Assembly: GCA_001872545.1 (NCBI GenBank)
Contig: MNWN01000011.1
Location: forward strand, 2,089-66,088
Direction: 5' to 3'
Length of the DNA: 64,000 nt
DNA from: Parcubacteria group bacterium CG1_02_58_44
GTDB taxonomy: Bacteria; Patescibacteriota; Patescibacteriia; SG8-24
Part shown: piece by piece, positions 10,445 through 56,100 of the stretch
How positions within the stretch are numbered: position 1 is the stretch's first letter
Layout of the letters: every line of letters starts with the position of its first letter
Notes under the pieces: generated by a model
Databases searched by the model: none
Seen by the model: only the letters and a program-made list of their open reading frames with translations
What the model was told of the DNA's origin: nothing
Position numbers and translations under genes: made by a program

Positions 10445-10916
10445 CATCATGGCCGACCGGACGGTCGTCCTTGCCGCAAAAACAGGGCAGGGAAGGAAAG
10501 TCCGGACACCCCTCGAGCGGCAACGCCGAGGAAGCAGGTAGTCGCTAACGACGACCGGGAATAAGGTTTGACGGGCATTTCTCCTAGGAAACTGGAGAAG
10601 TCTCTGTCGGCCCCAAGCCTAGGGAAAGTGAAACAGAAAACACACCGCCCGAACCCGAGCGCAAGCGGAGGTGAGGCCTCGAGCGGAACCGAAAGGTTTC
10701 CTCGAGCCGGGTAAGGTTGAAAACGTGGGGTAAGGGCCCACGCGGGACAGCCGCGCGAGCGGCGCCGTGGAAAACCCTGCCTGGTGCAAGAGCAAGTTTG
10801 GTAGCTCGCTAGAGGCCGTCGGCAACGACGGTCCCAGATAGATGGCCGTCCGTTGTCCGGGATGCGTTCACGCGTGTCGGGCGACGACAGAATCCGGCTT
10901 ACAGGTCGACCATGAA
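10445..10916 (+). ncRNA. rnpB: RNase P RNA (bacterial type), larger than usual
   Basis: Conserved blocks are present: GGGAAGGAAAGTCCGGAC (P4 5' strand), GGGTAAGGTTGAAAACGTGGGGTAAGGGCCCACGCGGG (P10-P12 region) and ACAGAATCCGGCTTACAGG (P4 3' strand). Terminal complementary arms CATGGCCGACC...GGTCGACCATG form P1. The track ORFs overlapping this region are therefore spurious. Confidence 0.8.
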
Positions 10917-11099
10917 CCATCGAAAAATCCGCCTTTCCGGGCGGTTTTTCGTTTCTTGTACCTCTCACCCATTTTCCATTTTAGGACAGATAACCGTCTT
11001 TCCAGACGAGGTTTTTCCTTGACAGTTACTTCCCTCCTCCTCTTTCTGTTAAGATTTAAATTGAACCCATCAATTAATTTATCTCTAATTTAGAGAGAT

Positions 11100-14865: not shown

Positions 14866-16194
14866 TCAAGATTGTGGACCCATGAAATCCGTGACCGCCC
14901 GGTCCAAGATCACGTCCGTCGGCCTAAACTTGCGCAATAGGACGATCCCTTTCAGCGTCATGCAGCGACTCAGGGCGACGTACATCTGACCATGTGCGAA
15001 GGCACCGTGACCGACGTCGACCAGTACCCGCTCGAAGGTCTTGCCCTGACTCTTGTGGATCGTCACCGCCCAGGCCAGCGTGATCGGATATTGAGTGTAT
15101 GACCCGACCACTTCCTCTTCCAGACTTCCGCCCTGACCGCTTCGGTACTCGAAGACTTCCCAAGTGTGCCGCTCGACCTCAACCTCGTCACCGTTCTCCA
15201 GCTCGACTTCCAGCACCGGCTGACCGGCCTCATCGTCCTGCCTGACTCGACGAATCGTACCCAAACTGCCGTTGACCCAGCGTTTGAGCGGATCGTTGGT
15301 GGTGAACATGATGCGTGCGCCGTCCTTGACCGTAACGGTCGCCTCGGATGGCATGCGCCGACCGCCGATGTCACCGAAGGAAGTCGCCTTGAACCGCCAC
15401 TCCTTCGACTCAAGCTGACTCAGCTCCAAGTCGTTCCTGCGCTGCGCCATCTTATTGGTGGTGGTCAGGTGGACCATGTAGTCATCCTCATTACGGGGAT
15501 CGAAATCCGGATCGTGCCGTTCGTTCCACAGCCTGACGTCATCTTCGGTTACCCTTGCGTTCCTGACGCGGTTGAGCAGCTCTACGAAATCGCGATCCTT
15601 CTGGCGGTAGACCTTCTTCAGCTCGAAAGTCTCGACCGGAAACTGTCGCATCACGTCGGCAGAAAAGAAGTACGGCGAAGGATAGCTGGTGCGGAACATG
15701 TCCAGCTCGTCACGGGTGACTACCGGCGGAAGCTGGAACAGGTCGCCGATCAGAACCATCTGTACGCCGCCGAACGGCAGGTCCGGCCGATCGCGATTCA
15801 GCCGCAGGGCCCGGTCGACGCAATCGAGCAGGTCGGCCCGAACCATGGAGATCTCGTCGATAATGATCGTCTCCAGCTTCTTGAAGAGATCCAGGCTGTC
15901 GGGATGGGCCTTGCGAACCAAACTCTTCTTTATCTCGGGATGAAAGCCAAAAAAGGAATGGATCGTCTGTCCGTGAACGTTGAGTGCGGCCACACCGGTC
16001 GGAGCCAGAACGACATGTCGCTTCCGGGTTTTCTGCCTGAAGTAGGTCAGTAGGGTCGACTTTCCGGTGCCAGCCCGTCCGGTCAAGAAAATGTTGCGGT
16101 CGGTCTCGTTGATCAGCTGCAGGGCAGTTCGAAACTCCTTGTTGATTTTGATGACGGTTTTCTTGCCCATAGATAGATTGATGGCGTTGTTCAA
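14866..16194 (-). CDS. ATP-dependent DNA helicase, Pif1/RecD-like (SF1B, AAA_30 type)
   Basis: Walker A FLTGRAGTGKSTLL, HVVLAPTGVAALNV, the Walker B-like IIIDEISMV and the C-terminal TIHKSQGKTFERVLVD motif typical of Pif1/RecD helicases. Confidence 0.85.
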   Translation of the reverse strand: MNNAINLSMGKKTVIKINKEFRTALQLINETDRNIFLTGRAGTGKSTLLTYFRQKTRKRHVVLAPTGVAALNVHGQTIHSFFGFHPEIKKSLVRKAHPDSLDLFKKLETIIIDEISMVRADLLDCVDRALRLNRDRPDLPFGGVQMVLIGDLFQLPPVVTRDELDMFRTSYPSPYFFSADVMRQFPVETFELKKVYRQKDRDFVELLNRVRNARVTEDDVRLWNERHDPDFDPRNEDDYMVHLTTTNKMAQRRNDLELSQLESKEWRFKATSFGDIGGRRMPSEATVTVKDGARIMFTTNDPLKRWVNGSLGTIRRVRQDDEAGQPVLEVELENGDEVEVERHTWEVFEYRSGQGGSLEEEVVGSYTQYPITLAWAVTIHKSQGKTFERVLVDVGHGAFAHGQMYVALSRCMTLKGIVLLRKFRPTDVILDRAVTDFMGPQS

Positions 16195-16352: not shown

Positions 16353-18311
16353 CTAGACCTCGATCAGCACAGGGAGAACCATCGGCCTGCGTTTGGTCTC
16401 CTTGAACAGGAACGATCCGACCTCGTTGCGGATCTTGCCCTTGATGAACTCCTCGAAGGCCGGAGTCCGGCTGTCCGCGTCCTTGAGTATCTTCTTGACC
16501 TTGATCCGCGCCTTCTCTATAAGCTCCTTGCTTTCGCGCATGTAGATGAATCCGCGCGAGATTATGTCCGGCGAGCTGACCAGCGCTCCGGTCTTCTTGT
16601 CGATCGTGACGATGACCACGAACATGCCCTCGTCGGCCAGCTGTACGCGGTCGCGCAGGACGACCTGCGACACGTCGCCGACGCCGAGTCCGTCGACCAT
16701 GACGTATTCGGTCGAGACCTTCTCGGTGGTCATTCTGATGCCGCCGTTGTCGACCTCAAAGACCTGTCCGTTTTCGGCGACGAAGATGTTTTCGCTGGGT
16801 ATGCCGACTTCCCGCCCCAGCTCCGCATGCGCCTCGAGCATGAAGCGGTTGCCGTGGATCGGAATAAGGTACTTGGGCATGGTCAGGCGCATCATCAGCT
16901 TCAGGTCCTCCTGCTTGGCGTGTCCGCCGGCATGGACGTCGAGGTTGTCGTAGTGGTAGACCTTGGCGCCCTGCTTGACCAGCGTGTCCTTGAGCGACTG
17001 GACGGTCCGTTCGTTGCCCGGAATGACCGAGGACGAGAAGACCACGCCGTCGCCCTTGCGCAGCGAGACGGTCCGATGTTCGCCGTTGGCCACCCGCATG
17101 AGCACGGCGTTGCGTTCGCCCTGGGCTCCGGTGCAGATGACCAGTGCCTTGTGGTCGGGGAGGCGCAGGAAGTCGCGGGCCTCGATGATGGTGCTGGGCT
17201 TGAACTTCATGTAGCCCATCTCCTTGGCGATCTCGACGTTGTTGCTCATCGAGCGCCCTTCGATCAGCACTCGGCGGTCGTACTTTTCGGCCAGTTCGAT
17301 GATCTGCCCCACTCGCGTCAGCAGCGACGAGAACGTCCCGATGATCAGGCGTCCCGGATGCTCGCGGATGATGCGTTCCATCTCCTTGCCGACCTGGCTC
17401 TCGGAGATCTGGTGGCCCGGACTGGTGGCGTTGGTCGAGTCCGACAGGAGCGCCAGCGCGCCGCTCAGTCCGAACGCGGCGATGTGGGTCAGGTCGATCG
17501 GATCGTCGTTTACCGGCGTGTAGTCGAACTTGAAGTCGCCGGTGCAGAGGATGGTTCCGTAGGGCGTGTGCAGCGCCGCGCCGAAGGCATCGGAGATGTT
17601 GTGGTTGACGTGGAACGGCTCGAAGACGAAGTGCCGACCGAGCTGGATCTTCTTCTCTGAGGTGACCAGCTGGATCTTCAGCTTGCTGACCGTACCGAAT
17701 TCCTCCTGCCGTTTCTTGAGAATTCCCGCGGTGAGCGGGGCAGTGAAGATCGTCGGGTAGCCGAGGCGTCCGATGGTCAGGGGAATTCCGCCGATGTGGT
17801 CCATGTGTCCGTGCGTCACGATGACGCCGCGGATGTTCTTCTCCTTGCCTTTCAGCGAGGAGATGTCCGGGATGATGTAGTCGATGCCCGGCATGCCCTC
17901 CTCCGGGAACATCAGCCCGATGTCGAGGATGATGATGTCGTCGCCGCACTCGAAGACGGTGCAGTTGCGGCCGATCTCCTCGAGTCCGCCCAAGGCGTAG
18001 ATCCTGAGCTTGGGGGTGCCGGCCGGAGCGTGCGTCTGATGCGCTATTTCGCGGCTAAGCGGCCCGACTCCGGGTTTTTTGGACTGAGGTCCGTCGGCTA
18101 CGGCGGATGGGATGACATGCTGCTGCTGCGGTCCGCGGCGTCCGGACGGGTATCCCGACGACGGTGGTCGGCGGCGTCTCTGGTCGTGACCCGAGCGGCG
18201 CTGGCCTTGGTTTGATCCGGCTTGGCCGGATGTCTTTTCTTTAGGTGTCATAGTTTTTGTCGGTTCTGCATTGGATGGGGACAGCAAAGGAGCAAGCGTC
18301 CGTCGCCGCAT
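16353..18311 (-). CDS. rnj: Ribonuclease J with about 100 aa N-terminal basic low-complexity extension
   Basis: The metallo-beta-lactamase motif VTHGHMDHIGGIP, beta-CASP and RNase J C-terminal regions are all present. The N-terminus is Arg/Gly/Pro/Gln-rich. Confidence 0.9.
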   Translation of the reverse strand: MRRRTLAPLLSPSNAEPTKTMTPKEKTSGQAGSNQGQRRSGHDQRRRRPPSSGYPSGRRGPQQQHVIPSAVADGPQSKKPGVGPLSREIAHQTHAPAGTPKLRIYALGGLEEIGRNCTVFECGDDIIILDIGLMFPEEGMPGIDYIIPDISSLKGKEKNIRGVIVTHGHMDHIGGIPLTIGRLGYPTIFTAPLTAGILKKRQEEFGTVSKLKIQLVTSEKKIQLGRHFVFEPFHVNHNISDAFGAALHTPYGTILCTGDFKFDYTPVNDDPIDLTHIAAFGLSGALALLSDSTNATSPGHQISESQVGKEMERIIREHPGRLIIGTFSSLLTRVGQIIELAEKYDRRVLIEGRSMSNNVEIAKEMGYMKFKPSTIIEARDFLRLPDHKALVICTGAQGERNAVLMRVANGEHRTVSLRKGDGVVFSSSVIPGNERTVQSLKDTLVKQGAKVYHYDNLDVHAGGHAKQEDLKLMMRLTMPKYLIPIHGNRFMLEAHAELGREVGIPSENIFVAENGQVFEVDNGGIRMTTEKVSTEYVMVDGLGVGDVSQVVLRDRVQLADEGMFVVIVTIDKKTGALVSSPDIISRGFIYMRESKELIEKARIKVKKILKDADSRTPAFEEFIKGKIRNEVGSFLFKETKRRPMVLPVLIEV

Positions 18312-18465
18312 CGTTTCCGATTCGAAAGATATCGTTGATTAGGTTAGTCGGCGAAGATGTCGCCATGCCACCGACGGAAAGTTCCGACGGCAGTTTACCT
18401 TTCGGCAGAATTGAGCAGGGGGCAGGAGGTGGAGGCTATCCGCTATTCAACTGTTCCGAAAATGA

Positions 18466-18545
18466 TCTCAGTCTGTCCTGCCGCTCCTGATGGACCCATA
18501 ACTGATGAGTCCGTCGGGAGTGGTGCCGTGGGTGGGATCGTCTCC
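18466..18545. repeat. Direct repeat copy 1, about 72 bp, containing a degenerate copy of the tRNA-Leu 3' end
   Basis: tctgtcctgccgctcctgatggacccataactgatgagtccgtcgggagtggtgccgtgggtgggat is nearly identical (1 mismatch) to 18678-18750. Confidence 0.7.
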
Positions 18546-18677
18546 TTGCCCGCCCGAACGGCGGGCTTCGTCACCTGGGCGGCGCCGGACCCTGCACCAG
18601 TTCGGGTCCGTCGGCACTCGCGCGCTCGCGTCTGGACGGACGCTCGCCGCTCGCTGCCGTCTGTTCAAATCCCTTCG

Positions 18678-18750
18678 ATTTTGGTCTGTCCTGCCGCTCC
18701 TGATGGACCCATAACTGATGAGTCCGTCGGGAGTGGTGCCGCGGGTGGGA
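18678..18750. repeat. Direct repeat copy 2, overlapping the 3' end of tRNA-Leu
   Basis: The same 72 bp sequence as copy 1. The last 17 nt are the complement of the tRNA-Leu 3' acceptor/T-arm end. Confidence 0.7.
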
Positions 18751-18820
18751 TTTGAACCCACACGGAGTTGCCCCCACTAGCTCCTGAAGCTAGCGTGTCT
18801 GCCAGTTTCACCACCGCGGC
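18734..18820 (-). tRNA. tRNA-Leu (anticodon CAG), class II with a long variable arm and genomically encoded CCA
   Basis: Reverse complement is GCCGCGGTGGTGAAACTGGCAGACACGCTAGCTTCAGGAGCTAGTGGGGGCAACTCCGTGTGGGTTCAAATCCCACCCGCGGCACCA. It has a 7 bp acceptor stem, the anticodon loop TTCAGGA, a 15 nt variable arm and a GTGGG/CCCAC T stem. Confidence 0.85.
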
Positions 18821-18835
18821 ATTACGTTCGCTGTT

Positions 18836-20683
18836 TTATCTCCAGACTTTTTTTGTCTTTACGTACCAGTCGGCTACACCAGTGAACCTGTCAGCCGGCG
18901 TGAAGACGACTGTCGGTTCGATGCCCTTCACTCGCCTGTCGACTGCATAGGTGTAGTTTGGACTGTAGAGGAAAATGGCCGGCAGGTCTTCGATCAGCAG
19001 GTCCTGAAAGTCCTGGTAGAGGGACTCTCTCTCTTCACTGTCGGTCGTGGCACGGGCCTTTTCCAGCAGCTGGTCGGCCCGTCGGTTCGAGTACCGCGAC
19101 AGGTTGAGTCCGCCGTTATCGATCTGAGAAGAGTGCCAGAAGGGAAACGGGTCGGGGTCCTGGCCGAGGATCTCTCCGTAGAGCAGGACGCTGTAGTCGC
19201 GCGGACGAAGCTTGTCCTGCTGGATTCGCGAGACCGGAACCAGCTCGATTGCTACCTGGACTCCGATGCCTTCCCACATCCGTTTGACGGTTTCGGCGAC
19301 GGAGACGTTCTCCTGAGAGTCGACTGTAGTCAAGGTTATGGACAGCGGAGTGTCGATCTTGTCGCCGTCGGCACCTGGCAGCATCTTGCTGCGGACGTTG
19401 CCGTCCCCGAGCTTCCAGCCCTCGTCGTCGAGCAGCTTGCCGGCCGCCGTCAGATCTTGGGAGTAGCGTTTGATCTCGGAGTGGAATCCGACGAATCCAG
19501 GCAGAATCGGTCCATGGACCGGCACCCCGTCGAACCCCAGAGTTTCGCTGAGCACCAGATCCTTGTCGATGGCCAAGGCCAGTGACTGCCGGACAGCCTT
19601 GCTTTTCAGTACCGGATTCTTGTCCTGGTTGAAGAAGATCGCCGTGTACTGGGGCAGTCGGAAGGTGTAGGTCATTATTGAACCGATCTCATTGACCGAC
19701 TCGCGATATTCTAGTGGCAAGAAGCTGATTCCGTCAACCTTACGTTCGGTGAGGGCATCGGCGGCCTGGTCGAAATTTGGGTAGAAGACGAAGGTCATTT
19801 CCGCCAGATGCGGCTTTTGGCCGTAGAATTCGTTGTTTTTCGAGAGGGTGTATGACCGAATCGCCCCTTTCTTGTCTTTGGTCAGGCTCTTGAAACGGAA
19901 AGGACCGGTGCCGATCGGCTTGACGTTCAGTTCGGCTCGGGTGGCGTTCTCCGGTATGACTTCCTGCCAGAGGTGAATCGGCATGATGCCGACCGTCAGC
20001 AGCGACAGGAACGGCGCAAACGGCTCCTTGAGACGGAAGATGACCGTACGTTCGTCGGGGGTTTCTATCTCCACGTTGCGAAATTGGGCGATCAGCGGGC
20101 TGTTGAAGGCCGGATCCTTGATGAAGTTGAAGGTGGCGGCGACGTCCGACGCTCCGAACGGAGCCCCGTCATGCCAGGTGACGCCGTCGCGCAGGACGAA
20201 GGAATAGGTCTTTCCGTCGTCGGCAGTCTCGAACGATTCGGCCAAGTCCGGTACCAGGTTGCCTTCGCTGTCCGTGCGAACCAGTCCGGAGAAGACCAAT
20301 TTGGAGATGTCCAAGTCGACGTCGTTGGAGGAGGCCAGTATGGGATTGATGAAGCGCGGTCCGCCCACTGAAGCCTCGGTGTACTGTCCGCCGTCGGCTG
20401 CTGTGTTCGTCATGTGGGAAGAGACGAACCTAACGCCGATTGCGCCTACGGCCAGGATGACCGCAATAGTCAGGATACCGACCAAGGTCTTTTCCTTGGG
20501 AGAGAGGAAACGAGAGAGATACTTGAGCTGACCGGAGGACGGAAGTTTTTTGCCGGAAAGCCTCAAGACGAGCCGTCGGTCGAGGCTCGAATCGTTGCGG
20601 GCCACACCGGCAGCCAACAGTTTTTTGATCTTCAGCCGTCCGCGACTAACGAGTTCGCGAAGACGGGCAATTGTGGAGTCCAC
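18836..20683 (-). CDS. ABC transporter substrate-binding protein, family 5 (OppA/DppA-like peptide or nickel binding), with an N-terminal membrane anchor
   Basis: The body QYTEASVGGPRFINPILASSNDVDLDISKLVFSGLVRTD... is typical of SBP_bac_5. The track ORF runs to 21031, but its first ~90 codons overlap secG in another frame. The true start is probably an internal GTG/TTG upstream of the TM segment LVGILTIAVILAVGAIGV. The start coordinate is approximate. Confidence 0.7.
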   Translation of the reverse strand: MDSTIARLRELVSRGRLKIKKLLAAGVARNDSSLDRRLVLRLSGKKLPSSGQLKYLSRFLSPKEKTLVGILTIAVILAVGAIGVRFVSSHMTNTAADGGQYTEASVGGPRFINPILASSNDVDLDISKLVFSGLVRTDSEGNLVPDLAESFETADDGKTYSFVLRDGVTWHDGAPFGASDVAATFNFIKDPAFNSPLIAQFRNVEIETPDERTVIFRLKEPFAPFLSLLTVGIMPIHLWQEVIPENATRAELNVKPIGTGPFRFKSLTKDKKGAIRSYTLSKNNEFYGQKPHLAEMTFVFYPNFDQAADALTERKVDGISFLPLEYRESVNEIGSIMTYTFRLPQYTAIFFNQDKNPVLKSKAVRQSLALAIDKDLVLSETLGFDGVPVHGPILPGFVGFHSEIKRYSQDLTAAGKLLDDEGWKLGDGNVRSKMLPGADGDKIDTPLSITLTTVDSQENVSVAETVKRMWEGIGVQVAIELVPVSRIQQDKLRPRDYSVLLYGEILGQDPDPFPFWHSSQIDNGGLNLSRYSNRRADQLLEKARATTDSEERESLYQDFQDLLIEDLPAIFLYSPNYTYAVDRRVKGIEPTVVFTPADRFTGVADWYVKTKKVWR

Positions 20684-20757
20684 AGTGGATGTACCTGCGA
20701 TTATAGGACGGACGTTGACCCTACCAGGAGGGGTCCGATCCAGAAGATACGCACGGT

Positions 20758-20982
20758 TTAGGCTTGCGGAACGAGAACGTTCGCCAAAGCCAGCGCGAAG
20801 AACAGGCTGGCGAACACGATAGTTGACCGGAAGAGAATCTTCTCCAGTCCGCGTTTGGTTCGATAGACGTTGCCGTCGCCGCCGAAGGTGGCACCTAAGC
20901 CCGTCCCGCGGGCCTGCAGCAGTATGCCGGTCACTAAGATGACGGAAACTACGATTTGGGCGATGTTTAATGCTAATTTCAT
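20758..20982 (-). CDS. secG: Preprotein translocase subunit SecG
   Basis: MKLALNIAQIVVSVILVTGILLQARGTGLGATFGG has the SecG signature Gly-rich loop between two TM helices. The start is the ATG at 20980-20982 rather than the longer track ORF. Confidence 0.8.
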   Translation of the reverse strand: MKLALNIAQIVVSVILVTGILLQARGTGLGATFGGDGNVYRTKRGLEKILFRSTIVFASLFFALALANVLVPQA

Positions 20983-21188
20983 ACCATTTTGTCTCGTCCG
21001 CGCTTGTCGGACGATCATACAGATCAATCACGAAACTGAAGTTAGGTTATCAAATCGGACTTGACGTGTCAATGTCAGGCGACCTCAGCCGGTGAACAAA
21101 AAATGTCTTCATTTCGGTTTTTTGCTTTCGAGTTCGGGATTACGGACGGGCCATTATCCCCACAGTCAGTCAGGTTTCCAGCTCGGAG

Positions 21189-21968
21189 TTGCGCTATACT
21201 GCTAAAGGTATGGAAACGCGAAACGGTTTGACGAGCCGCGGTCAAGTCATCGGCAGGGGACTGGTCGTCTTAGGATGGACAGTTTTCTTGCTGGCACTGA
21301 CTCTCGTTTTGATTTTGGGAGTGAAGGCCTTCGGCTACTATCGGCAGATACGTTCTGGGGATCTGGTCGAGTTGCCGCAGTACGGGAACCGCCTGTCGGT
21401 CGGGAGCGATGGCGGAAACAGCCAAACGGTCGCCCTGAAGGAGATTGAGGACCTGCTGAATTCGGCGGATGGACCGGCGATCGGCCCGTCGATCGACGGC
21501 GCATTCGCGACCGTGGTGATGTTCGGGGATTTCGAGTGCCCCTTCTCCAGGGATTCGTCGACCGTATTCCGTCGGCTGTCGGTGCGCTACGGGGATCAAG
21601 TCAGGTTCGTCTACTTGGACTTTCCGTTGAGTTCGATCCATCCGTTCGCCGCGCTGTCGGCCGAGGCGGCCGAGTGCGCCGGTGAGCAGCTGCGCTATTG
21701 GGAGTACTTCGATCGGCTTTACGGCAATTCCTCGACGCTCAGTCAGGCCGTCCTGCTGCAGTACGCCCGGGAGACCGGGCTCGACAGTGAGCAGTTCGAG
21801 CGTTGCCTGGACAGCGGACGTTTCGCCGAGAAGGTCGAGGCCGACCGTTCCCTGGCCGAACGTCTGGGATTGAAGGGTACTCCATCGTTTTTCATAAACG
21901 GTCGTCGGATCGAGGGCGCCATACCGGAGCAGGACCTCGACCGACTCTTACAGAAAATGATCAATTGA
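21189..21968 (+). CDS. DsbA-family thiol:disulfide oxidoreductase with an N-terminal membrane anchor
   Basis: A TM segment is followed by a thioredoxin fold with the active-site context VVMFGDFECPFSRDS (a CxxS/C-type motif) and a DsbA-like helical insertion. Confidence 0.7.
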   Translation: MRYTAKGMETRNGLTSRGQVIGRGLVVLGWTVFLLALTLVLILGVKAFGYYRQIRSGDLVELPQYGNRLSVGSDGGNSQTVALKEIEDLLNSADGPAIGPSIDGAFATVVMFGDFECPFSRDSSTVFRRLSVRYGDQVRFVYLDFPLSSIHPFAALSAEAAECAGEQLRYWEYFDRLYGNSSTLSQAVLLQYARETGLDSEQFERCLDSGRFAEKVEADRSLAERLGLKGTPSFFINGRRIEGAIPEQDLDRLLQKMIN

Positions 21969-21973
21969 GACAT

Positions 21974-23944
21974 ATGGTTCGTTTACAGGCCAATCGCGGG
22001 TGGATATCCATGATCTCGTCCGGTCTGGCGGGACTGCTGGTCGGACTTAACCTGTCGGTCCTGGTGCTGTTTTCTCTGGTTCCGACGGCTCAAGCCACAA
22101 GCAGCCTGACCTGTAACGGGAGCTACGGCTGCTTCACCAGTACGGCCTGCACGCTTTCGCATGGCGATTTCGTGGCCTGTCCCGACAGATGCGACACTGA
22201 GGGGCGAAGCGGTCGCGGTTACTGCTATTCGCGTCCCGAACGGGTCACGTTGGCAGTCAGGATCGGGAGCCTGACCCTAGTCGATGACCTGGCGCAATAC
22301 ATAGAGAACCTCTACCGGGTCGCCATTGGGATCGCGGCGATACTTTCCGCGGCCATGCTTATGATCGGCGGCCTGCAGTGGTTGACGTCCGGAGGTTCGG
22401 ATCAGGCCGGCAAGGCACGGGAGAGGATCATGAATAGTGTGATCGGATTATTATTGACAATTTTTGCCTACATTATTTTGAACACCATCAATCCAGCTCT
22501 GGTTCATATGCAGATGCCGCGTTTACCCATGGTTCGACAGGAACTTTTTGTTCGTTGTGAGTTGTTTAAAATGCGAGCTGCCTGCGGACAACCGTTCGGG
22601 ATTATAGAGATGGAAAATGCGGATCCTAGTGCCGGTGAGACCGAAAGATATGAAGTCACGTCCGACCTCAATCATCCGGACCTGTTGACCGAGTGCGTCG
22701 GGGGGAGCTGCGCCGAGGCCGGACTGGATGACGGCTCGTACACCTGTCAGAGGCAGTCTGGATCGACGACTCCGGCCCCTGCCGTTCCGGCCGGCGGTAC
22801 GGTTAACGCTGGTGTGGGGACTGGCGGTTCTCCGGCCGAAGGGGCAGTCACGACCGGCAACGGAACGGGAGGCGCATCAGTCGGTGCGGGTTATCAGTGC
22901 CTACCCTGCACGGTGGCGGATCAGATCTGTCAGGGGCTCGGACCAAGCAACAGTTGCTGCGGCGGGTACTGCGGTGCGACTGCGAACACGGCTGATGCGG
23001 CCAATGCTCGAGTTCAAGCTGGGACTGTAGTTGAACAGACAAGAGAGGTTGTTGGAGCTACCTTATCTGGAACTTGTGGTAATGGAATGGACGGGACTAG
23101 ATGTGGTTCAAGTGATGAATGCCGTGGTGGCAAGTGTGTTAATGCAGCGTTGTATTGGCAGGGATTGTCTACATTAGCCAATACGGCTGGAGAGTCGGCT
23201 GCGAATGTCTGGCATATAGTAACTGATCCTACCGGTATTTTAGATAGATTTATTGGTGGTGTTAGACAGGCTGGTCGAGCTGTTACTAACTCAACTGCAC
23301 TAGCAGATGCTTGGACTGGCGGTATTTGTTCGAGTGGAGCAGTTGGTGCGCCATGTAATACCGACATTGATTGTGGTTCTGGTATGGTTTGTTTGGATGA
23401 CTATGGAGTCCATGTCTGTTCGCGACCGATAGTCGGCGGGTATTGTTCTGAAAATCGTCACTGTGGTAGCAATCAATGCATCGCTGAATTGGGGGCATGT
23501 ATGGGTTCTGCCGGTACCGGCTTCGGCTGTGACGATGATGCGACCTGCGTTCAAAGGTATGGTGAGGGTTACGAATGCCGTGACGGCATAGCTGAAGGAC
23601 CTATCTGTACCAGCGGTGAGGACGGAAGTCTGTGTATTGACAATTCGCAATGCGACAGTCACCATTGCTATACCAGTGCAATCATGGATGCAGGAGAAGA
23701 TGTTGGTCTCTGCGTTTCTGGCGAAGACGGCAGCGGGTGCGACGCCGCCGACGACTGCAATAGCGGGGTCTGCTACAACAGCGACGGCTACGGTCAGGTC
23801 TGTGTCGGTCCGAGTACCGAGTCCGGTTCGCCCTGTATTCCCGGTCAGAGCGAAAGGCAGTGTGCCGGTGACCTGATTTGCAACGAGACCAGCCGTACCT
23901 GCGTCCGTCGCGCCTCGAATTCGGCCGGATCCGGCACTCATTAG
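21974..23944 (+). CDS. Secreted Cys-rich protein with a VirB2/TrbC-type pilin-like module (two TM helices) and C-terminal disulfide-rich repeats
   Basis: Start taken at the internal Met [22 protein letters not shown] (signal/TM). The segment [56 protein letters not shown] is homologous to the N-terminal modules of the 44884 and 47162 proteins. The C-terminal half consists of C-x(3-6)-C-x(3-6)-C repeats. Confidence 0.65.
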
Positions 23945-31964: not shown

Positions 31965-32158
31965 TTTTTCCGAAGTCCGAAATGGCAGGCCGATCCTCGG
32001 ATCGGTGGCGTCGGCCTTCCTTATCTTAGTTCGATGAACACTGATCCTATTCAGCCATGGAACATCAGTCAGCGGCCTAAGTCAAGGGTTGAGATGATCC
32101 GTCCGTATCGGAACTAGGTTGAAACGCCTCGCAGTTTTTGCTAAGGTGAGGCGGCCAA

Positions 32159-32234
32159 CGGCCCGTAGCTCAGTGGTTAGAGCGCCGCCCTTATAAGGCG
32201 GATGTCGGCGGTTCAAATCCGCCCGGGCCGACCA
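32159..32234 (+). tRNA. tRNA-Ile with genomic anticodon TAT (UAU), CCA encoded
   Basis: CGGCCCG TA GCTC AGTGGTTA GAGC G CCGCC CTTATAA GGCGG ATGTC GGCGG TTCAAAT CCGCC CGGGCCG A CCA gives a perfect cloverleaf. The anticodon loop has U33 and A37 with the anticodon UAU. Confidence 0.8.
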
Positions 32235-32484
32235 TTCTAGCCGAAAATTTGTTTTTTGAACGATGTTTTGTTTTCGTCAGTGTGTTCTCCAAGAAGGACT
32301 TGAAGGGTTGAGCCGTGAGCCGGCGAACGGCGAGAGGGGCGGCAAAAGCCGTCCGGGCTCAGAACATTTCAGTTTTTTGATCGAGGCCCTGCCGAGAAAC
32401 ACCTGTCCGGACAGAAACAAGCCCGTCTCAGTATGAGCGTTCGGTGTGCAGCCGCCCCGGTACCCGAGTCGGAGCGAGGGGAAG

Positions 32485-32503
32485 TCCGCCCGGGCCGACC
32501 ATT
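32485..32503 (+). repeat. Duplicated copy of the tRNA-Ile 3' end (tccgcccgggccgaccatt), about 270 bp downstream of the tRNA
   Basis: Exact 19 nt match to 32216-32234 plus 2 nt beyond the tRNA. Confidence 0.55.
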
Positions 32504-32881
32504 TAGAATCGTAGGTTTCGTTTTCAGTTCGCCATGAAAAAATGCGTCTCACGGCGCATTTTTGCGTTTTAATGGCTTGTTATCCCGGCATCAAAAACAT
32601 GTCATCCCGGCCCCCTAACCAATGTCATCCCGGGCCGAGACCCGGGATCCAGTGCCGTCTTGTCTTACCTTGGTCCCCACCTCCGCTAAAGCTACGGCGG
32701 GCAAGCCGGGTCAGGCCCGGAACGACAACAAAGAAGTCCGAGACTGTTAGAGAGAGGTATATGGGTGGCAATGACAAAGGCACTGTCTTTTTCGGCAAAT
32801 TCAAACCCCGGGCCTTGGCCAGAGGAGTGTCATTATTCTATAAGCTCCCCAGCGAAGCTGGGGTGTACGTTCGTAAAATAA

Positions 32882-47161: not shown

Positions 47162-50100
47162 ATGCGCATAGACCGAAAAAAATTGGTAACTGCCGCGGTG
47201 GTGGTCTTTGGTGTGGCCCTGCTCGTATTTCCGGTTTTGGCGCAGACCGATTTGGGTTTGGATTACGCAACGTCGACCGGTCTTGGTACGACCGACATCC
47301 GGACAATCATCGGCAACATCGTCAACTACTTCCTTGGGCTGTTGGGCATCATAGCCGTACTGCTGATCCTCTACGGCGGCTTTAAGTGGATGACGTCGCA
47401 GGGCAACGAGGAACAGGTCGCCGATGCGAAGAAGATCATCGTCTCCAGTGTCATCGGTTTGGCTATCATCCTGTCCGCTTTTGCCATCGCGCAATTTATT
47501 CTAAGAGCGATAATCTCTGGCACCGGATTCGAAGGTGATGTAGGGCCAGGAGGCGGACGGTGTCCGCCTGGAGAGGTCTGCGGCATACCTGGAGCCGGCT
47601 CCGGCGGGTTTAAAGTCTCCGGCGTGGTGCCGGCCGGCAACGGTCCGGGAGGTTCCGGCTGGCCCAAGAACTACGCCATTACCGTTGCCTTTAGCCATGA
47701 AGTCGCGGCGGCAACCGTTAACGGAACTTCCTTTGTGGTGGAGAGGTGCAATCCGCGGTTGTCTGGCGGTGACCCTGCTCCGTTCAATGAGAGGAATTGC
47801 AATACCGTAGTTTCGGGTACTCGGACAGTTGAGGCTAATCGAATAGTCTTTAGACCCGACGATACGCCTGGAGACTATCCTACCGATTTCGAAGAAGATT
47901 ATTGGTATCGGGTACGGGTACTCGGTGGCGACGTCACCGACGTTCGTGGTCGAATTCTGGTCTGTCCTTTCTTGCCGCCGGGTCCGGACGGTGACATTTC
48001 GTCACCACGTGCGCTGTCGAGCCTGTGCGACCGGGCCATGGCCTTCAACAACCTTCGCGATGTCGAACCTCCGACCGTCAGGATCGACTCTCCTGCTTCC
48101 GCACCAGCCTACTGCCTGGACCGGATTCGCATCCGGGCCAGGGTGGAGGACGACTTCCTTCCGTCAAGGGTCGACTTCATGTTGGATGGGGGTCTGGCTC
48201 ACTTGATGGACGCCGACGACGAGCCCCTGTTTAGCGTTATCAATGCCGCACTGGATAATCCGTTCCTGTCCGATTCGGTCTTCATCGATTCCTCGAGTTT
48301 GGCCGATGGCGAGCACACCCTGTCCGCCGTCGGTTACGACGGCGTGCCCCAGGCCAGTGAGGCGGTCGACAAGAGGTTCAGGATAAATCCGGCCCATTGC
48401 TGTGACAGCGTACTGGATGCCGAGCTGGGTGAGGATGAGATAGATTGCGGTGCGGAGTCCGGCTGTGGTGCATGTCCGGAAGGTTTGTGTACAGAAGATG
48501 CCGATTGCGCGTCGGGTCTCTGCGAATCAGGGCACTGTGTGGCACGTCCGACGATACTCGATGTCTCTCCACTGAGGGCCGGACCCGGGACGCTGGTGAC
48601 GATCAGCGGTCGGTACTTCGGCGGAACCATGGGTCAGGTAGTTTTCTTGGGTGGCGATACGGACGGGGACGGTGAGGAGGCGGGGGATGACGACGACAGG
48701 TCGGCGGCTGCCTGTTCGCCCTGGTCCTGGTCCGACGATGAGGTAGTGGTCGCAGTTCCGGACGGAGCGGTCACCGGACCGCTGCAGCTGATCACCTCAG
48801 CCGGAACTTCGGATCGCACTGACGATGATTTTGAGCCGATGATCGGTGCCTTCTCTGTCAATGACGAGGTTTTCCCCGGAATCTGCTATCTGGAACCGAG
48901 TACAGGATCGGCCGGCGATCGGTTCATCGCCCACGGTGCCGGCTTTGGGGATGCCATGGGTGCCAGCCTGATCAGGATGGGTGGGGTGAGCGCCGACGTG
49001 GCGGCCGGAGGCTGGACGGCCTCGGCCGTTTCCGCCGCCGTTCCGTCCGTGCTGGCCGAGGGTATCTATCAGGTTGGGGTGATGGTCGGCGGACTGGACG
49101 GCATCGCGACTAACCAGCTCAACTTTACCCTGCGACGCCGCGACGAGGACGTCGGACCGCGAATAATCGAGATACTCCCGTCTTCCGGTCCGGTCGGCTC
49201 CTATGTCACCCTGCGCGGCACCGGTTTTGGACGGCGTAAGGGATTGGTCAGGTTTTTTTCTTCGCCGGACGGAGTCGACGGAATCGATTCGGCCATAGCC
49301 GCCGATCCGATCTGCGACGACAACTGGCATGATAACTACATCGTCGTAAAAGTACCGGACAAGTACATTGGCGACCTGGACATCGATCTAATTCGTCATC
49401 GGGTAGAGGTCGAGACGGCCGCTCCGGCTCAAACCAGTAACCGAGTAGACTTTTTGATCGATGGCAGTCCGTTGACGCCAGGAATGTGCTCGATTACGCC
49501 TGACAACGGCAAACCGGGCATACCTGTGATCGTATCGGGCGAGGGTTTCGGGCCGGGTCCGGCCAACGTAGACGCTCCCGGTTTCGCTGGGTTTGACGGC
49601 CGTCAGCCGGAAAGTTCGCTTCGTTTTTACGTTTCTGGGGCGGCGGCTGCTCCTGGTTTGATGGACGGCTTGATTACCAAGCCGTCGACGGCCTATTTGT
49701 GGTCTAGAACATCCGTCCGATCGGCGATCCCCGGCAATCCGGCCGACCGGAGCACTTGGCCGAATTCCGGTCCGGTTTTTGTCGTGGCTCGTAATGTGGC
49801 CACCCGCAATCCGATTCCGTTCAAGATTGGCGACTGCAATGACGATGGGATTTGCGAGGAGGGGACAACCTGCTGTGCCAACGGTTCGTGCCGTGAGTCC
49901 TGCGAACCGGAGGCTCGGAACAGTAAGTTCGGCTGGTACTTCAGTACCGACGTCCTACCTACCTTGCCCGTAGTGATACAGCGATCTTCCTGCAATATGG
50001 TGGCCGGCACCATTCAAAGTCCGACACCACAACACAGGGCGACCGATGCCTGTCGCAATGCTGAGGCGGCTGTGGAGTTTAGTCAGCCGATGAATATCGG

Positions 50101-53100
50101 TTCGCTGGACGATCCTGAGTCGCTGCTCATTGAGGAATGCGGTAGCGGTCGCGATATCGACTGTGCCGACCCACCAGTTGTCGTGCCGATCGCCAGACCG
50201 GTCGGGACTGACCTGACTGCAGACGGCATGACTATTCTTTCCATCCATCCGAGCAGTTTGGTTTATCCGCCGAACGATCTCGATGATGACGAGAACGAGC
50301 CGTTTACCGGTTACTTCAAGATCGGCACTTGGTATCGGGTGACCTTGGTTTCCAAACCGGGCGAAGTCGGCATTTTCGACACGACCGGCCGGTATCTGGA
50401 CGGAGATTATGATCGACGGGCCGGTGGTAATTTCACCTGGACTTTCAGGACAAGGACCGATCCGGCGGCCTGCGCTGCCGACAGCGTCATGGTCCTGCCG
50501 TCACGCTATACGATCACCCATCAGGGCATGCCCCCGGATCCGGACATCGGATTTAGCGCCGCACTGATGAACGGAGCCAACTGCAACAGGCTGCAGTGCG
50601 TCGGCCGTGAAGGCTTTGACCTGAGATGGTCGAGCGATCCGGGTGTATTCATCAGTTTGCTTGGTGCCGGTCCGGTCGCCGGATGTCGACAGCAGGTTAC
50701 AGGTCTGCTCGAGACCCCCGTTGACGCACCGGAAAGACTGACTGTATCCCTGCGGCCGGTCGGTGAGCTGCTGGACCGCAGGAGCACTTCGGCAGTGTCC
50801 GTAGCCTTCGCCGATCCGCGGGTAGTGCGGGTCATGCCGACTGAAGGCTGCACTGAGGCCTGTGTCAACGCGGTGGTCGGCGCGGTTTTCAACATACCGA
50901 TGAGTGCGCGGTCTTTCGCCGGAAACGTCGAACTGCTGCAGTGCCGCAACTCTTCCTGCAACCCACCTTTCGTTCCGATTGAGTTTACGGTCACGTCAGT
51001 CAGGGACGATGGTATCCGTGTGCTTCCGCTCGGCGATCCCGATGCGGTCCTTCAGGTCAGGATAGAGCCGGTTCCTGATGTCGGGGAGATGCCAAGGTTG
51101 ACGCCTGATACCTTCTTTAAGGTCAGAATCAGGGGCGGAGCCGACGGGGTTCTTTCCACGAGTGACATACCGCTCACTGGACTCAACACGCCCGGCTTTT
51201 ACGAATGGAAATTTAAGACTAGGACCGACGGCAGCATCTGCGAGATCTCTCGGGCGGAGATTGTTCCGCCTAACGCCACCTTGCGTTACGTAAGCGAACG
51301 TTTCGGCCTCAGTGTCGGAGCGTACGGACCGGCTGGTGACGAGTGCAGTCCCGACGGTCAGGAGATAAACGCCTGGGGCTATGATTGGGACTGGTCGGTC
51401 GATCCGAATCCCGTCCTGGTCGGTTTCATCAGGGCTAGAGATGTTGGTTCGGAAACCGGAATAGGCATCAGAGTCGACACGAATCCAGCGCCGAGGCGCG
51501 GCTGCGACAGCCAATGTCTGTTGGTCGGCTCGACCGATGTCGTTTCGCAGTGCGGAAACACCGATCCGGCTGATCCTCGTCCGCCTAGGGATCGGGCCGA
51601 GATTGGGGAGGACTGCGACGATGGCGATATCGACGGAGGCGACGGCTGCAGCGCGAACTGCCTGGCCGAAGGTTCTGCCTTCCCGACTTGCGGCAACGGC
51701 CGGTTGGATTCGGGGGAGCTGTGTGAGGCGCTTCCCGATGGGGAAGGGACCTTAGTCTTTCCGTTGGGCTGCAAGGATCCCAATATAAATATTGATGACA
51801 GGCCTGAACTTAACGACATAGGCTGTATTTTCTTGGGGTCTACGGCTGGAGGGTCGGTCTGTGGCGACGGTATTTGGGGTGACGGCGAAGCCTGTGAGGA
51901 CGGAAACCGACGCGATGGCGATGGCTGCAGCGCGGACTGTCTTCATGAAGGGACGTTTTCTATATGTACGGACGCTACGCCGGTGGACGTAAGATGCGTC
52001 AGTCAGTGCGGCAATGCCCATATTGAGCCGGGCGAGGATCCGGACTGTGACTTGGCCGGAGGCGTCGCATTGGGTTGCGATTTGCACTCTTGCACTAAGA
52101 CCGGTTCGGAGTCAGCTCAATGTTTGAATGATCATCTAGATCCGGGGGAGGAGTGTAGAGATGGAAATACTGATAACGGCGACGGCTGCAGCAGCCGCTG
52201 TCTGCTTGAAGGATCGTCGGCCTTCTATCGGGTACCTTCCTTTTGTGGTGACGGGTTTGTCGGACAGGGCGAGCATTCGTACTGTGACGGTGACGAAGTT
52301 GAGCCCGACAGGCTGATTGACAGTCGACAGATTACGGTCGCCGGAGACTACGATTCGACCGCCGGCGCCGCTACGACGAGCGTAGTGCATGCTTCGGTCG
52401 ATCGGCTGCCGGAAGGTTCCAGGGGTAACTCACGCGTGACGCTGACCTGTAACTGCAGCTCACAGGTCAGTCCCGACGGGTACTGTTTGGGACTGCTGGA
52501 CGGAGTGCCGGCCGCCCTGCGGCCGCCGGCCGGTTTGGCCTGCGCCGATTCGGGCTGCTGCGCACCTAGACCTTACGGCAGGCTGACCTATCCGGTTGAG
52601 GGCTCGGTCGGTATCTGCCGCAACACCGCCATACACTTGGAATTCGATCAGCCCATGAACGCCACTTCAATTAGTCAGAATCTATTGATCGGCGTCGACA
52701 GTGGTCCAGACGGCTGTCCGGCGGCTTTGGACGGCGGTCCAGATGAGAGCGGGGTCATTGAAGTACCGCCCTTCCCTCCGCCCCTGCCTGGACCGTTGGC
52801 CGTTGGGCCTGGCGGCCTGCTTCGTCGGGCTTGGTCGGCTGTCGCTGCATTTTTCGGTGACCTGTTCGGCCGGCCGGCTGCAGGTCATGCCCTCGGTATC
52901 CCGCATACCCATTTCTGCTCGATCACTGGAGATGTCACCGTTAGACTGACGGACGAGTCTAGAACCGAGGTCGAGTTTATGCTCGATCACGCCTTGCCTG
53001 CGGGAACCAGAATTAGGGTTAGGGTCCAGCCGGATGCCAGGACGATCGGCGGAGTCAGAATTAATCCGGCCGGACTGACTGCTGAGTTCACCACCGGTGA

Positions 53101-56100
53101 TCTGATCTGCGCCGTCGATCGCGTGATCGTCAGTCCGGAATCGGTCTTGCTGAACAGCGTTCGGGCTCCGGACCGGCCTCTCGTGGCTCGTGGCGTGTCC
53201 GACGACCGCGGCATTCGTGTCGACGGCGATGCCGCTAGTCTGATCGTGCCGACCAGGGAATACTCTTGGTCATGGGAATGGCTGCCGCTCTCTGAGAGGC
53301 TGCCGCATGTCTCTCCGGCCGTACTGAATCCGGTCACTGTCGGAGGGCGGCAGAGCGAGCGAGCGATGGTTCGGGTCAGGGGGCGCGAAACCGGGGACGA
53401 TCCGATCGGATACGTGCCGCAGGACGGTGTTGTAAATGTTTCGGTCAATGCTGTCACCGTCAATCCTGACGGTTCCGTTGCCCGTCTGCCGGTACTCGAC
53501 GGGCTTACCGGTCTGCCCGTACCAGATGAGTTCGTACTCCCTGGTAGTTCAACGGTTACGGTCGCGCTTTGTGACGTCATCTGGCCAAAGGTTCAGACCT
53601 GCGGCGATGATGGGAGGCTGCATCTGCCTTGGGATCCGGACAATCTACTCAATCCGCTCCATGGTGAAGAATGTTCGGCTGGAGTGGAACAGTTCTGGTA
53701 TCCCTTCACGGATCCGGAAACGAAAGCCAGCTTCTACTACTGCCGTGACATCTCGGGAGGCGACGGCGACGATCTTCTGCCGGCCATCGATGAGGATTTC
53801 GTTCTCGTCCACCCGGGCGGCGACATCCTGCACGAGTATCTCTTCACCTTTGCCGGCGCTGGGGCCGGTGATGCTTGGCAGAAAGATGCCGTAGGTTTCC
53901 GGACAATGTACAACCCGAGGCATATCGGCGTGGCCGACTGGTATCGCGACCGCGGTTTCTCCGGTGCGCCGATGCCGTTCAATGTCGACGGATACGACGC
54001 CATGAAGGAAGGTCGGACCGTCTACGTCAATTCCGCGTTTCTGGACGACACCCTGCATCTTTCCACTAACGTCAACGTCTTTTCGTTCAGTGACGGGTCC
54101 GCACCGGAGACGGTCACGGTCTTCAACCAGATAATGAATCGCATCAACTTCAACCGGCAGTCGGGACTCATGGACACTTTCATCTGTCAGGACGACGGCC
54201 GGGCGGTCTTGGACGAGGGCGGAAGCGCTTTGACCTGTTCCATCGATCTCGACTGCACGACAGGCACCTGTGGTGTCCCGAAGTCGAAGCTCGTACGTGA
54301 CGTGCGACGCTGGTCGGACCTTCACACCATGAGGTCTCTTCTCATGGCCAATCGTCCGCTTCCGACATTGGGCGAAGGCACCTTCATACGCTCCAGGACG
54401 TACAGCATCTGGCCGTCATGGGGCGACGTCCTGTCCCTGTCCGTCGGACGAACCATGCCGTCGGATCCCATAAACGCATTGGCATCTTGTTCGAGCGACG
54501 GTTTTGATTCGGAGACCTGCTGGAATTCGGTCAGTCGTGAGTTCAGTTGCGGAAGCCGTTCCAGCATCTATAGGTATCAGATCTTGGCCGGTCAGGCCGA
54601 TCTGTCCGTAGACATGGAGCTGGTCGGTCCGAAATGGAAAGGCACGACCTGCATCGAGATAACGGACAGTGTTGCCTGTGGGGCCATGTCTGGCTGTGTC
54701 TGGACAGGCGCTCCACCGAGCGGTAGCTGCAACTACGAGACCGTCAGGTTCCGTGCCTATGGGATAAACGCCGGTGCCGACATGTGTACCGGAGCGGTTG
54801 AGAGTGAGGAGGCGGGCTGCGGTAACGGCATCATCAATTCCGGTGAGGCCTGCGAACTGGGAGACCTCAGGACTCAGGAAGGAGCAGACGGTATCTGTGT
54901 CGGCGGAACCGTGGAGCAGGCCTGCACGTCGGACTGTCGCGGCTGGGAGGACGTACCCGGAACCTGCCGGATCGGCTACTGCGGCGACGGACGGAGACAG
55001 GGGGCCGAAACCTGCGATGACGGACCGCTCAACGGGACGTACGGGCACTGCAACGGCATCTGCAGAGGTTCGACCTTTTACTGTGGCGATGGTCTGTCCC
55101 ATCCCAGTGAGCTGTGCGATTGCGGCAGCTTGAATGGAAGTTATGCGGTCAACGCGGTTATTGCGCCATCGGGTGGGGTTCGTGCTTGTAGCACTGAAGA
55201 ACCGCGCACTGGGGCTAGTTTCGCTTCCTGTTCCTGGGATTGCCGTGGTCCGGCTCCGCACTGCGGCGACGGCATCATCAACGGCGTCGAGCAGTGCGAT
55301 GGCGGTTCTGAGGAGAGTCGTGGCGTTTGTCGGCGACCGGCTGACGACCCGCTGCATCCGTCGGGAGGCACCTGCACGGCAGACGCCGACTGCAATCTCG
55401 CGGGCGGGGAGCGCTGCGTGACCTGTCTGACTGTCGAACAGAGGTTCCGTCGGGCCTGCAACCCGAATAACGTCACTTCGGCCGATGACGAAAGAGATGG
55501 AGTGCCCAATCAGTCCTGTCACTGGAGTGCCTGGTCGTGTACCGCCCCCGGACGTTGCGGCAACGGCGTGACCGAGACCGGCGAGCAGTGCGACGACGGC
55601 AACGACGAGGATAACGATGCCTGCACCAGCGCCTGCATCAGCAACGTCTGCGGCGACGGATTCGTGAACGCGGCCGGCGGCGAGCTGTGCGACAGCGGCG
55701 GAAGGAACAACACTCCCTGCGTGCCCGAGTACGGGCATACCTGCAACTACTGCACTTCGGCCTGCCGATTGGGTACGGTTTCTGGCGGCTACTGCGGCGA
55801 CGGCCTGCTCCAGAACGCCAGTTCGGAGATACCGGGTCCCGAACAGTGCGACACGCACGGTGTGGTCATCGGTGACGGTTGGGTCTGCGTCAGCACCAGG
55901 CCCAAGGACAGGAGCTTCGGTACGCAGACCGGCTACGGCATCTGCTCGCTGAGCGGATGTGGCTACTCCTGTGCGGACAGAGATTCGGAGCTGTGCCAGA
56001 ATGATGCACTCGATGGCAATTCAGACCTCATACTTCCCGAAAGTTTTGAGGTAAGCATGGCGTCCAGGCCTGAATCCTGCGCCTTTATGGATTACGTTCC

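Follow-up and report, generated by a model that had tools for sequence, protein, structure and literature searches.

Introduction

Downstream of the tyrT-tyrV genes of Escherichia coli K-12 lie 178-bp units, each of which overlaps a copy of the last 19 nt of tRNA-Tyr (A58-A76), and this repeat region is annotated as the small RNA RttR. In the Rfam consensus of RtT (RF00391), GGGGAAGGAU closes the structure by pairing with AUCCUUCCC, where the tRNA-tail copy begins; after this 5′ strand come GAGAA and GC-rich hairpins, and the model ends in a free tail, CCACCACCA. The rtT RNA arises by processing of the tyrT transcript and may be connected with the stringent response. To our knowledge, RtT has been described only in enterobacteria so far, and neither a function nor an origin of the E. 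coli RNA has gained acceptance for decades. The older rtT literature is said to include work by Egan and Landy from 1978, by Rossi et al. from 1981 and by Bosl and Kersten from 1991.

Other known systems involve the ends or the interior of tRNA genes. A short sponge RNA of E. coli, 3′ETS-leuZ, derives from a tRNA-Leu trailer. Where tRNA genes serve as attachment (att) sites, the blocks of identity follow a general rule that Williams reportedly set out in 2002. According to a later account, these blocks start in the T loop and run through the 3′ end of the gene and beyond (PMC9897764). In Patescibacteria, the known group I intron sites of tRNA genes lie in the anticodon loop (35/36; PMC13011429).

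Here we describe a duplicated tRNA-Leu 3′ end in a stretch of 64,000 nt from Parcubacteria group bacterium CG1_02_58_44 (contig MNWN01000011.1), hereafter the window, in whose positions all coordinates are given unless a related locus, designated by an L number, is named. An earlier note on this DNA had drawn attention to the duplication as a probable trace of recombination. We consider it probable, although by no means certain, that the repeat bounds an RtT-like tRNA-trailer element located behind tRNA-Leu(CAG).

The Neighborhood of tRNA-Leu(CAG)

An intact tRNA-Leu(CAG) gene with an encoded CCA occupies positions 18734-18820 of the minus strand (ARAGORN; 56 bits with the Rfam tRNA model). 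It is flanked by a gene for a family-5 solute-binding protein (SBP; 18836-21031, minus strand), and the RNase J gene (16353-18251, minus strand) flanks the element on the other side. The order SBP, tRNA-Leu(CAG), RNase J and TrpRS is kept in ~70 Patescibacteria species, and the remaining neighborhood genes are housekeeping genes, around this element and around the tRNA-Ile element described below alike.

Several features of the surroundings deserve mention in their own right. The 5′ leader of RNase J (~18398-18462, minus strand) contains a long hairpin (UUUCGGAACAGUUGAAUAGCGG ... CUCAAUUCUGCCGAAAGG), which may be autoregulatory, and a similar leader sequence is recognizable in L005, L006, L007, L093, L090 and L008. 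At L090 (595-2178), tandem repeats of ~125 nt with terminator-like hairpins directly follow tRNA-Leu and are themselves followed by an open reading frame (ORF) of 360 aa without a Pfam match, inserted before RNase J. A bacterial class A RNase P RNA (170 bits) is encoded at 10449-10917 on the plus strand of the window, and its position near TrpRS is kept in several relatives. The window also holds, on the plus strand, an ORF of 3358 aa (47162-57238) with no assigned function and a gene for a 713-aa protein (21803-23944) with a T4SS-pilin domain, presumably of the kind associated with Patescibacteria. Finally, a PIF1-family helicase gene (14866-16194, minus strand) adjoins RNase J; in yeast, helicases of this family reportedly guard tRNA genes against R-loop instability (PMC5413955), and the presence of this gene near the element may well be a coincidence.

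A Near-Perfect Repeat Overlapping the tRNA 3′ End

Repeat search and alignment recovered the near-identical sequence that had been reported to occur twice with a single mismatch, and one copy does end within the tRNA-Leu gene, matching its 3′ end. This proximal copy (18684-18751, minus strand) joins the last 18 nt of the tRNA, from T-loop A59 to CCA (18734-18751), to a trailer hairpin of 50 nt (18684-18733). The distal copy (18471-18538, minus strand) consists of a tRNA tail, AUCCCACCCACGGCACCA, with one mismatch (18521-18538) and of a second 50-nt hairpin (18471-18520). Although the earlier note was right that a sequence is present twice at close spacing and that it comprises the tRNA 3′ end and extra-tRNA flank, its measures needed correction: the quoted string is 67-68 nt rather than 72 nt long, the tRNA part is 18 rather than 17 nt, the flank is 50 nt rather than 55 bp, and the spacing is 213 rather than 212, with 145 nt between the copies.

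The near-perfect core of the repeat measures 68 nt (18471-18538 vs. 18684-18751), and its sole mismatch is C/T at 18529/18742. With a somewhat wider frame, the repeat search aligned 18464-18538 with 18677-18751 (75 nt, 95% identity, start-to-start distance 213). An exact sub-string of 57 nt occurs exactly twice in the window, for an expectation of zero in 100 shuffles. The identical arrangement, single mismatch included, is found in three independent assemblies of the organism (JGI 3300004239, ENA ERZ909569 and NCBI GCA_002322515.1), which argues that the repeat is not an assembly artefact. In GCA_002322515.1 a run of N falls within the distal copy, and a k = 31 Logan contig ends exactly 30 nt inside the repeat; a repeat of such length would be expected to cause both breaks. 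The match to GCA_002322515.1 makes the organism a Candidatus Uhrbacteria bacterium, to which the source names of the encoded RluA protein also point. The inner helix of the trailer hairpin has undergone compensatory changes, since the alignment pairs GGAC/GUCC in the window, AGAC/GUCU in L005 and AGGU/ACCU in L006.

Inheritance of the Arrangement in Related Species

The loci L005 and L006 belong to the closest species in the genome collection, with RNase J identities of 93% and 88%, respectively. Both show the same layout as the window: the tRNA is followed by a hairpin flank, a GC-rich spacer of ~140 nt, a tRNA-tail copy of 18-19 nt and another hairpin flank. Their spacers are orthologous to that of the window, with identities of 88% (L005) and 69% (L006). 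In L006 just 24 nt of the two copies are still identical; both flanks can nonetheless form hairpins. At least three Uhrbacteria species have thus inherited the arrangement. The element was found in these three closest species and is absent from three relatives with an RNase J identity of 81-82% (L090, L091 and L095), so that its distribution over the lineages is patchy.

These relatives bear directly on the reading of the repeat as a classic scar of site-specific integration or excision, which the earlier note had put forward with the proviso that the same arrangement in relatives would speak against a fresh insertion. That arrangement, with an orthologous spacer, is what L005 and L006 carry, no integrase accompanies it, and neither the scar nor the fresh insertion stands up. 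Pfam scans revealed no recombinase or cargo in the 145 nt between the copies or in the neighboring genes, and no tyrosine or serine recombinase among the extra ORFs of the SBP-RNase J interval at ~84 related loci. The extra ORFs found there encode an IS3 remnant, an Rnl1-type RNA ligase, methyltransferases, a GNAT protein, an AdoMet decarboxylase-like protein and unknowns.

An older event of this kind may still be envisaged, in which a tyrosine integrase acted at the T loop of tRNA-Leu and a replacement 3′ end was brought in, after which deletion would have left attL and attR 145 nt apart, as in a decayed, CIME-like integrative element. Such a history would account for a direct repeat that extends from the T loop past the tRNA 3′ end, for the patchy distribution, and for the serial non-identical tRNA-Leu 3′ fragments of L049, which look like the result of successive integrations. 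We nevertheless hold it to be distinctly unlikely, because the ~84 loci yielded no integrase or cargo and only one mobile gene, the IS3 remnant of L049, because the arrangement is common to three species, and because the spacer is conserved and covarying, which decaying foreign DNA should not be; nor does an att remnant predict that the same core recurs behind different tRNAs with a matching complement of the T loop, as described below. A search for a corresponding attP on phages, by scanning IMG/VR with the 18-nt tail, led only to one phage tRNA gene and two apparent coding-sequence matches, and this candidate was dropped; a second scan, with a motif of class B (introduced below), found nothing.

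A Conserved Fold Closed on the Copied tRNA Tail

The 145 nt between the repeat copies contain two parts of interest. An “anti-T-loop” (anti-T) segment, GGGAUUUGAAC, lies at 18663-18673 of the minus strand; it was read from the sequence, appears in the consensus and minimum-free-energy folds, and is the exact reverse complement of tRNA positions 53-63 (GUUCAAAUCCC). It is followed by a GC-rich structured core (18539-18662, minus strand), for which RNAalifold predicts four hairpins. In both the consensus and the minimum-free-energy fold, a closing helix of 6 bp joins the first 6 nt of GGGAUUUGAAC, as 5′ strand, to a 3′ strand made of the first 5 nt of the distal tRNA-tail copy and G18539; in the consensus fold GGGAUU pairs with GAUCCC, and one pair of this helix (alignment columns 23/157) reads U.G, U-A and C-G in the three species. 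The acceptor strand and the CCA of the second copy remain unpaired in the predicted fold, as a free 3′ tail.

Over the three orthologues (window, L005 and L006), RNAalifold predicted 45 pairs, and 93% of the cells of this consensus fold are paired (n = 3 sequences). Changes on both sides of a pair number 13, vs. 1 in each of six slid controls (n = 3), and none of 500 shuffles reached the observed covariation values. The G.U pairs are consistent with the strand that is sense for the tRNA. The spacer thus has a conserved, covarying fold closed by the helix between anti-T and tail copy, and this class-A fold is supported by three sequences. A small protein encoded in the spacer was also considered and rejected, since L006 differs from the others by indels of 2 + 2 + 1 nt that break the frame and make a conserved ORF unlikely. 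No Rfam family matched the element at threshold. An CUGAUGAG motif on the plus strand of the flank, considered as part of a hammerhead, comes without the GAAA core, and no Rfam ribozyme matched in the region. On the strand of the element, the stretch from the tRNA to RNase J shows no consensus terminator or promoter, and in this phylum such an absence is weak evidence of co-transcription.

The fold also weighs on a more prosaic explanation, namely that a fragile tRNA locus underwent a neutral, partial local duplication and that the hairpins are merely GC-rich sequence. Heterogeneous partial tRNA duplications do occur elsewhere (L048, L051 and L014), and the tandem repeats of L090 at the same site are unrelated to the element. 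Neutrality is however hard to reconcile with compensatory changes in 13 pairs or with an architecture and motifs that recur at unrelated loci and with different tRNAs, and the pattern is A-B-A rather than A-B-A-B: only the 68-nt segment is repeated, and the distal copy gives way to the conserved RNase J leader instead of a second spacer. We therefore regard this explanation as highly improbable. Of the tandem duplication that had been suggested as an alternative to integration, the repetition of a segment holds, but a simple duplication of a whole unit does not, given that the order is A-B-A and that B is conserved, covarying and part of a family found behind several tRNAs.

Concerted Evolution of the Copies

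In the window and in L005, the two copies within each genome are ~99% identical over 68-73 nt, with one mismatch each. When 78 nt are compared, the copies are 91-92% identical within a genome, whereas those of the window and of L005 are ~74-80% identical to one another (20-26% different), and the repeat copies group by genome and not by position. Higher identity within than between genomes indicates that the copies evolve in concert. Unit number varies as well, from 1.3 in the window to 2.1 perfect units in L083 and 3.14 in E. coli. At L083 (3543-3816), two 128-nt units stand in perfect tandem and each closes with the 18-nt tRNA-Leu tail, which points to a very recent amplification of the unit. 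The proposal that the repeat marks a recombination hotspot survives in this form, through the homogeneity of copies within genomes and the tandem expansion of L083, once the integration scar attached to it is set aside.

Related Elements behind Several tRNAs

A census was made of second copies of the last 15 nt of a tRNA (at most one mismatch, within 1.5 kb, same strand). Among 107 tRNAs it returned 13 matches, all downstream of the gene, for ~0.014 expected by chance. Matches at tRNA-Leu(CAG) were found in L007, L093, L018, L040, L051 and L083, with one further tail copy in L018 that only an 18-nt search detected; other matches concern tRNA-Ala in L061, tRNA-Leu(CAA) in L048 and tRNA-Ile(TAT) in the window itself. 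In the RtT-like cases, the tail copies begin at T-loop positions 57-59, and 38-61 nt past the tRNA end stands a segment that complements the T loop of the lineage itself; GC-rich hairpins separate this anti-T segment from the tail copy. In L083, L061 and L051 the tRNA gene has no CCA and neither do the copies, which indicates that copying took place at the DNA level. The 18-nt boundary is reminiscent of m1A58, a position that stops reverse transcriptase; a retro-copy of a mature tRNA was nevertheless rejected, since the copies are without CCA wherever the gene is.

The second element of the window (32235-32501, plus strand) stands behind tRNA-Ile(TAT) (32159-32234, plus strand). It begins with a linker of 61 nt (32235-32295), continues with the anti-T segment GGACUUGAA (32296-32304) and a core, and ends in a copy of the last 20 nt of the tRNA, AAGUCCGCCCGGGCCGACCA (32482-32501), with one mismatch in the T-loop part. 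Judging from its sequence, it looks like two class-B modules in series. By eye, ~38 of the 42 nt before its tail copy match the tRNA-Leu-linked element of L093. A search through the RelA/SpoT neighbors of tRNA-Ile gave no orthologue, as synteny is not conserved there, and a search through the RluA neighbor gave one orthologous locus, L106, from the same genome as L006. L106 has an orthologous short form after tRNA-Ile, in which the tail copy has decayed at its 3′ end (GGGTCGAGAA vs. GGGCCGACCA), so that the tail is not always under selection; elsewhere, gene conversion alone may explain tail identity.

Covariance models connect these loci. The class-B model R2, built solely from L093, L007 and L106, matches the tRNA-Ile element of the window (32406-32501, E = 5.6e-5) and the class-A element of L006 (E = 0.044), and the class-A model R1 matches L018 (E = 0.003) and L007 (E = 0.03). 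The same core is thereby found at different tRNAs, tRNA-Ile in the window and L106 and tRNA-Leu in L007 and L093. Elements of one family are thus placed behind different tRNAs, each with the tail of its own host tRNA. A scan of JGI metagenomes with the class-A pattern yielded only a copy of L005 and one chance match.

Several loci show further rearrangements around tRNA-Leu. In L018 (1719-3607), two further copies of the tRNA-Leu 3′ end lie behind the gene; one terminator-like hairpin follows the tRNA and another the first copy, and a gene for an Rnl1-type RNA ligase (PF09511, 2477-3607) lies after the copies and before RNase J. L020 (2930-3185) contains a second tRNA-Leu(CAG)-like sequence with two GC-rich insertions of ~85 nt; the D loop holds one, the other falls between variable arm and T stem, and both have motifs in common with the elements described here. 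In L049 (2106-3700), two non-identical tRNA-Leu 3′ fragments and an IS3 (rve) remnant occupy the interval between tRNA and RNase J, and in L014 (3371-3657) a 5′ portion of tRNA-Leu, cut in the T loop, lies 117 nt upstream of the intact gene. The partial tRNA duplications of L048, L051, L014 and L049 are not RtT-like, which suggests a general fragility of tRNA loci and counts against the trailer-element reading.

Could the Anti-T Segment Act as a Guide?

The complementarity between the anti-T segment and the T loop invites another interpretation, that of a small non-autonomous mobile or RNA-repair element with an internal guide and a spare tRNA 3′ end. Its GAAC would pair with tRNA positions 53-56 and the rest with the start of the tail copy, in the manner of the internal guide of an intron, with self-insertion at T loops or replacement of the tRNA 3′ end by trans-splicing or splinted ligation as the outcome. 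We judge this interpretation unlikely, though several observations agree with it. The anti-T segment complements the T loop of each host (AUUU in the window, AGUU in L018, ACUU in L040 and ACUC in L061), most elements have a G before the junction, the same core recurs behind different tRNAs, a gene for an Rnl1-type RNA ligase adjoins the L018 elements, and the tRNA genes of Patescibacteria are rich in group I introns, which also occur in the tmRNA T loop (PMC13011429).

What weakens it is, for one, the behavior of the anti-T segment where tRNA and copy differ. In L006 the segment has drifted to pair with the copy and not with the real tRNA, and in the tRNA-Ile element of the window it still complements the copy although the T loop of the tRNA itself differs; the match to the copy in both cases speaks for a helix in cis rather than a guide in trans. 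In L007 and L093, moreover, two guide positions mismatch the tRNA. [quoted passage not shown] A group I intron in particular was looked for and not found, as RF00028 had no match at E ≤ 10 and the tRNA is uninterrupted. A guide-RNA module of another kind, such as a TnpB reRNA or a CAST homing crRNA with a tRNA spacer, was rejected because the vicinity holds no nuclease or transposase gene; a match to CRISPR-DR28, at chance level (E = 1.4), was all that turned up for this idea.

In its broadest form, the idea would make RtT-like elements of different phyla guide-bearing RNAs at tRNA 3′ ends, serving self-insertion or the repair of tRNA 3′ ends with an RNA ligase such as the Rnl1-type enzyme encoded beside the L018 elements; we consider this quite improbable. 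If it were true, the anti-T segment would be a guide or splint over the T-loop junction, and repair might follow, for example, cleavage in the T loop.

A Tentative Model of the RtT-Like Element

The reading of the repeat as the boundary of an RtT-like trailer element leads to the following model. The unit of 213 nt comprises the last 18 nt of the tRNA, the 50-nt hairpin linker and the structured, GC-rich spacer of ~145 nt, and is present 1.3 times directly behind tRNA-Leu(CAG). The element is presumably co-transcribed with the tRNA. As the second tail stands in the same context of sequence and hairpin as the first, its 3′ end could be formed by the tRNA-trimming machinery, and the duplicated tRNA end and hairpin would constitute a second 3′-end processing site of the tRNA type. 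By analogy with the architecture of E. coli rttR, the predicted trailer RNA unit extends over 213 nt (18521-18733, minus strand), from right after the CCA of the tRNA to the CCA of the second copy. A discrete RNA of ~213 nt ending in ...GGCACCA would be released, as described for E. coli rtT. Gene conversion may keep the copies alike and unequal recombination may add or remove units. An insertion or a partial duplication, broken at one end in the T loop, could have founded the element, and the family would since have moved between tRNA genes.

Partial tRNA repeats are routinely taken as integration scars, and the present case illustrates that they can bound a conserved structured RNA. The RtT architecture is now encountered in Patescibacteria genomes of ~1 Mb, behind several tRNAs and with the support of covariation, which suggests that such tRNA-trailer RNAs form a class that is widespread and has been overlooked. 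The Patescibacteria elements offer a diverse set of sequences for the study of its structure, processing and function.

Comparison with Known Systems

Set against tRNA att sites, the window element has a direct repeat of the 3′ part of the tRNA from the T loop onward and identity past the end of the gene. It differs from att sites and CIME remnants in its 145-nt interval, which has no recombinase or cargo and has a conserved structure in three species. With group I introns it has in common an internal segment complementary across a loop junction of a tRNA-like molecule and a host phylum rich in such RNAs, whereas its tRNA is uninterrupted, its core is far smaller and gives no Rfam group I match, and the loop concerned is the T loop instead of the anticodon loop (35/36) of the known tRNA sites. 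Like 3′ETS-leuZ, it would be an RNA cut from a tRNA-Leu trailer by the tRNA-processing machinery; unlike the window element, 3′ETS-leuZ has no tRNA-tail copy and no anti-T closing helix.

RtT comes closest in build, but the sequence models connect the two faintly. The Rfam RtT model found no match at E ≤ 10 in the window at 17800-19300, 18515-18735 or 32100-32640, and the window element does not reach its gathering threshold of 45 bits. On the L093 element it gave a match of full length and in register at 12 bits (E = 7), and the top four matches of R2 are four E. coli RtT units, in register (E = 0.02-0.05). These matches between Patescibacteria and RtT are below threshold and owe much to the closing helix and to the generic ...CACCA tail, so that the likeness may be convergent. 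On these comparisons, we class the window element as RtT-like by build only and, since its score fails, not as a member of RF00391.

The differences extend to the hosts, Patescibacteria rather than Enterobacteria, and to the host tRNAs, which are Leu, Ile and Ala rather than Tyr. The window has 1.3 units instead of 3.14, its trailer copy runs 50 nt past the tRNA tail, and it has no tpr-like ORF. As in RtT, the window element (18521-18733, minus strand) lies directly downstream of its tRNA on the same strand, and its unit ends in a tRNA-tail copy that starts in the T loop (18 nt, A59-A76, in the window; 19 nt, from A58, in E. coli). A closing helix engages the start of the tail copy and leaves the acceptor strand and CCA free, the linker measures 59 nt in E. 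coli and 56-61 nt in the window elements, L007 and L093, and GC-rich hairpins fill a layout of the form (A-B)n-A. The class-B relatives, finally, have the motifs GGAY-GAGAA and AGCGAGAG in common with RtT.
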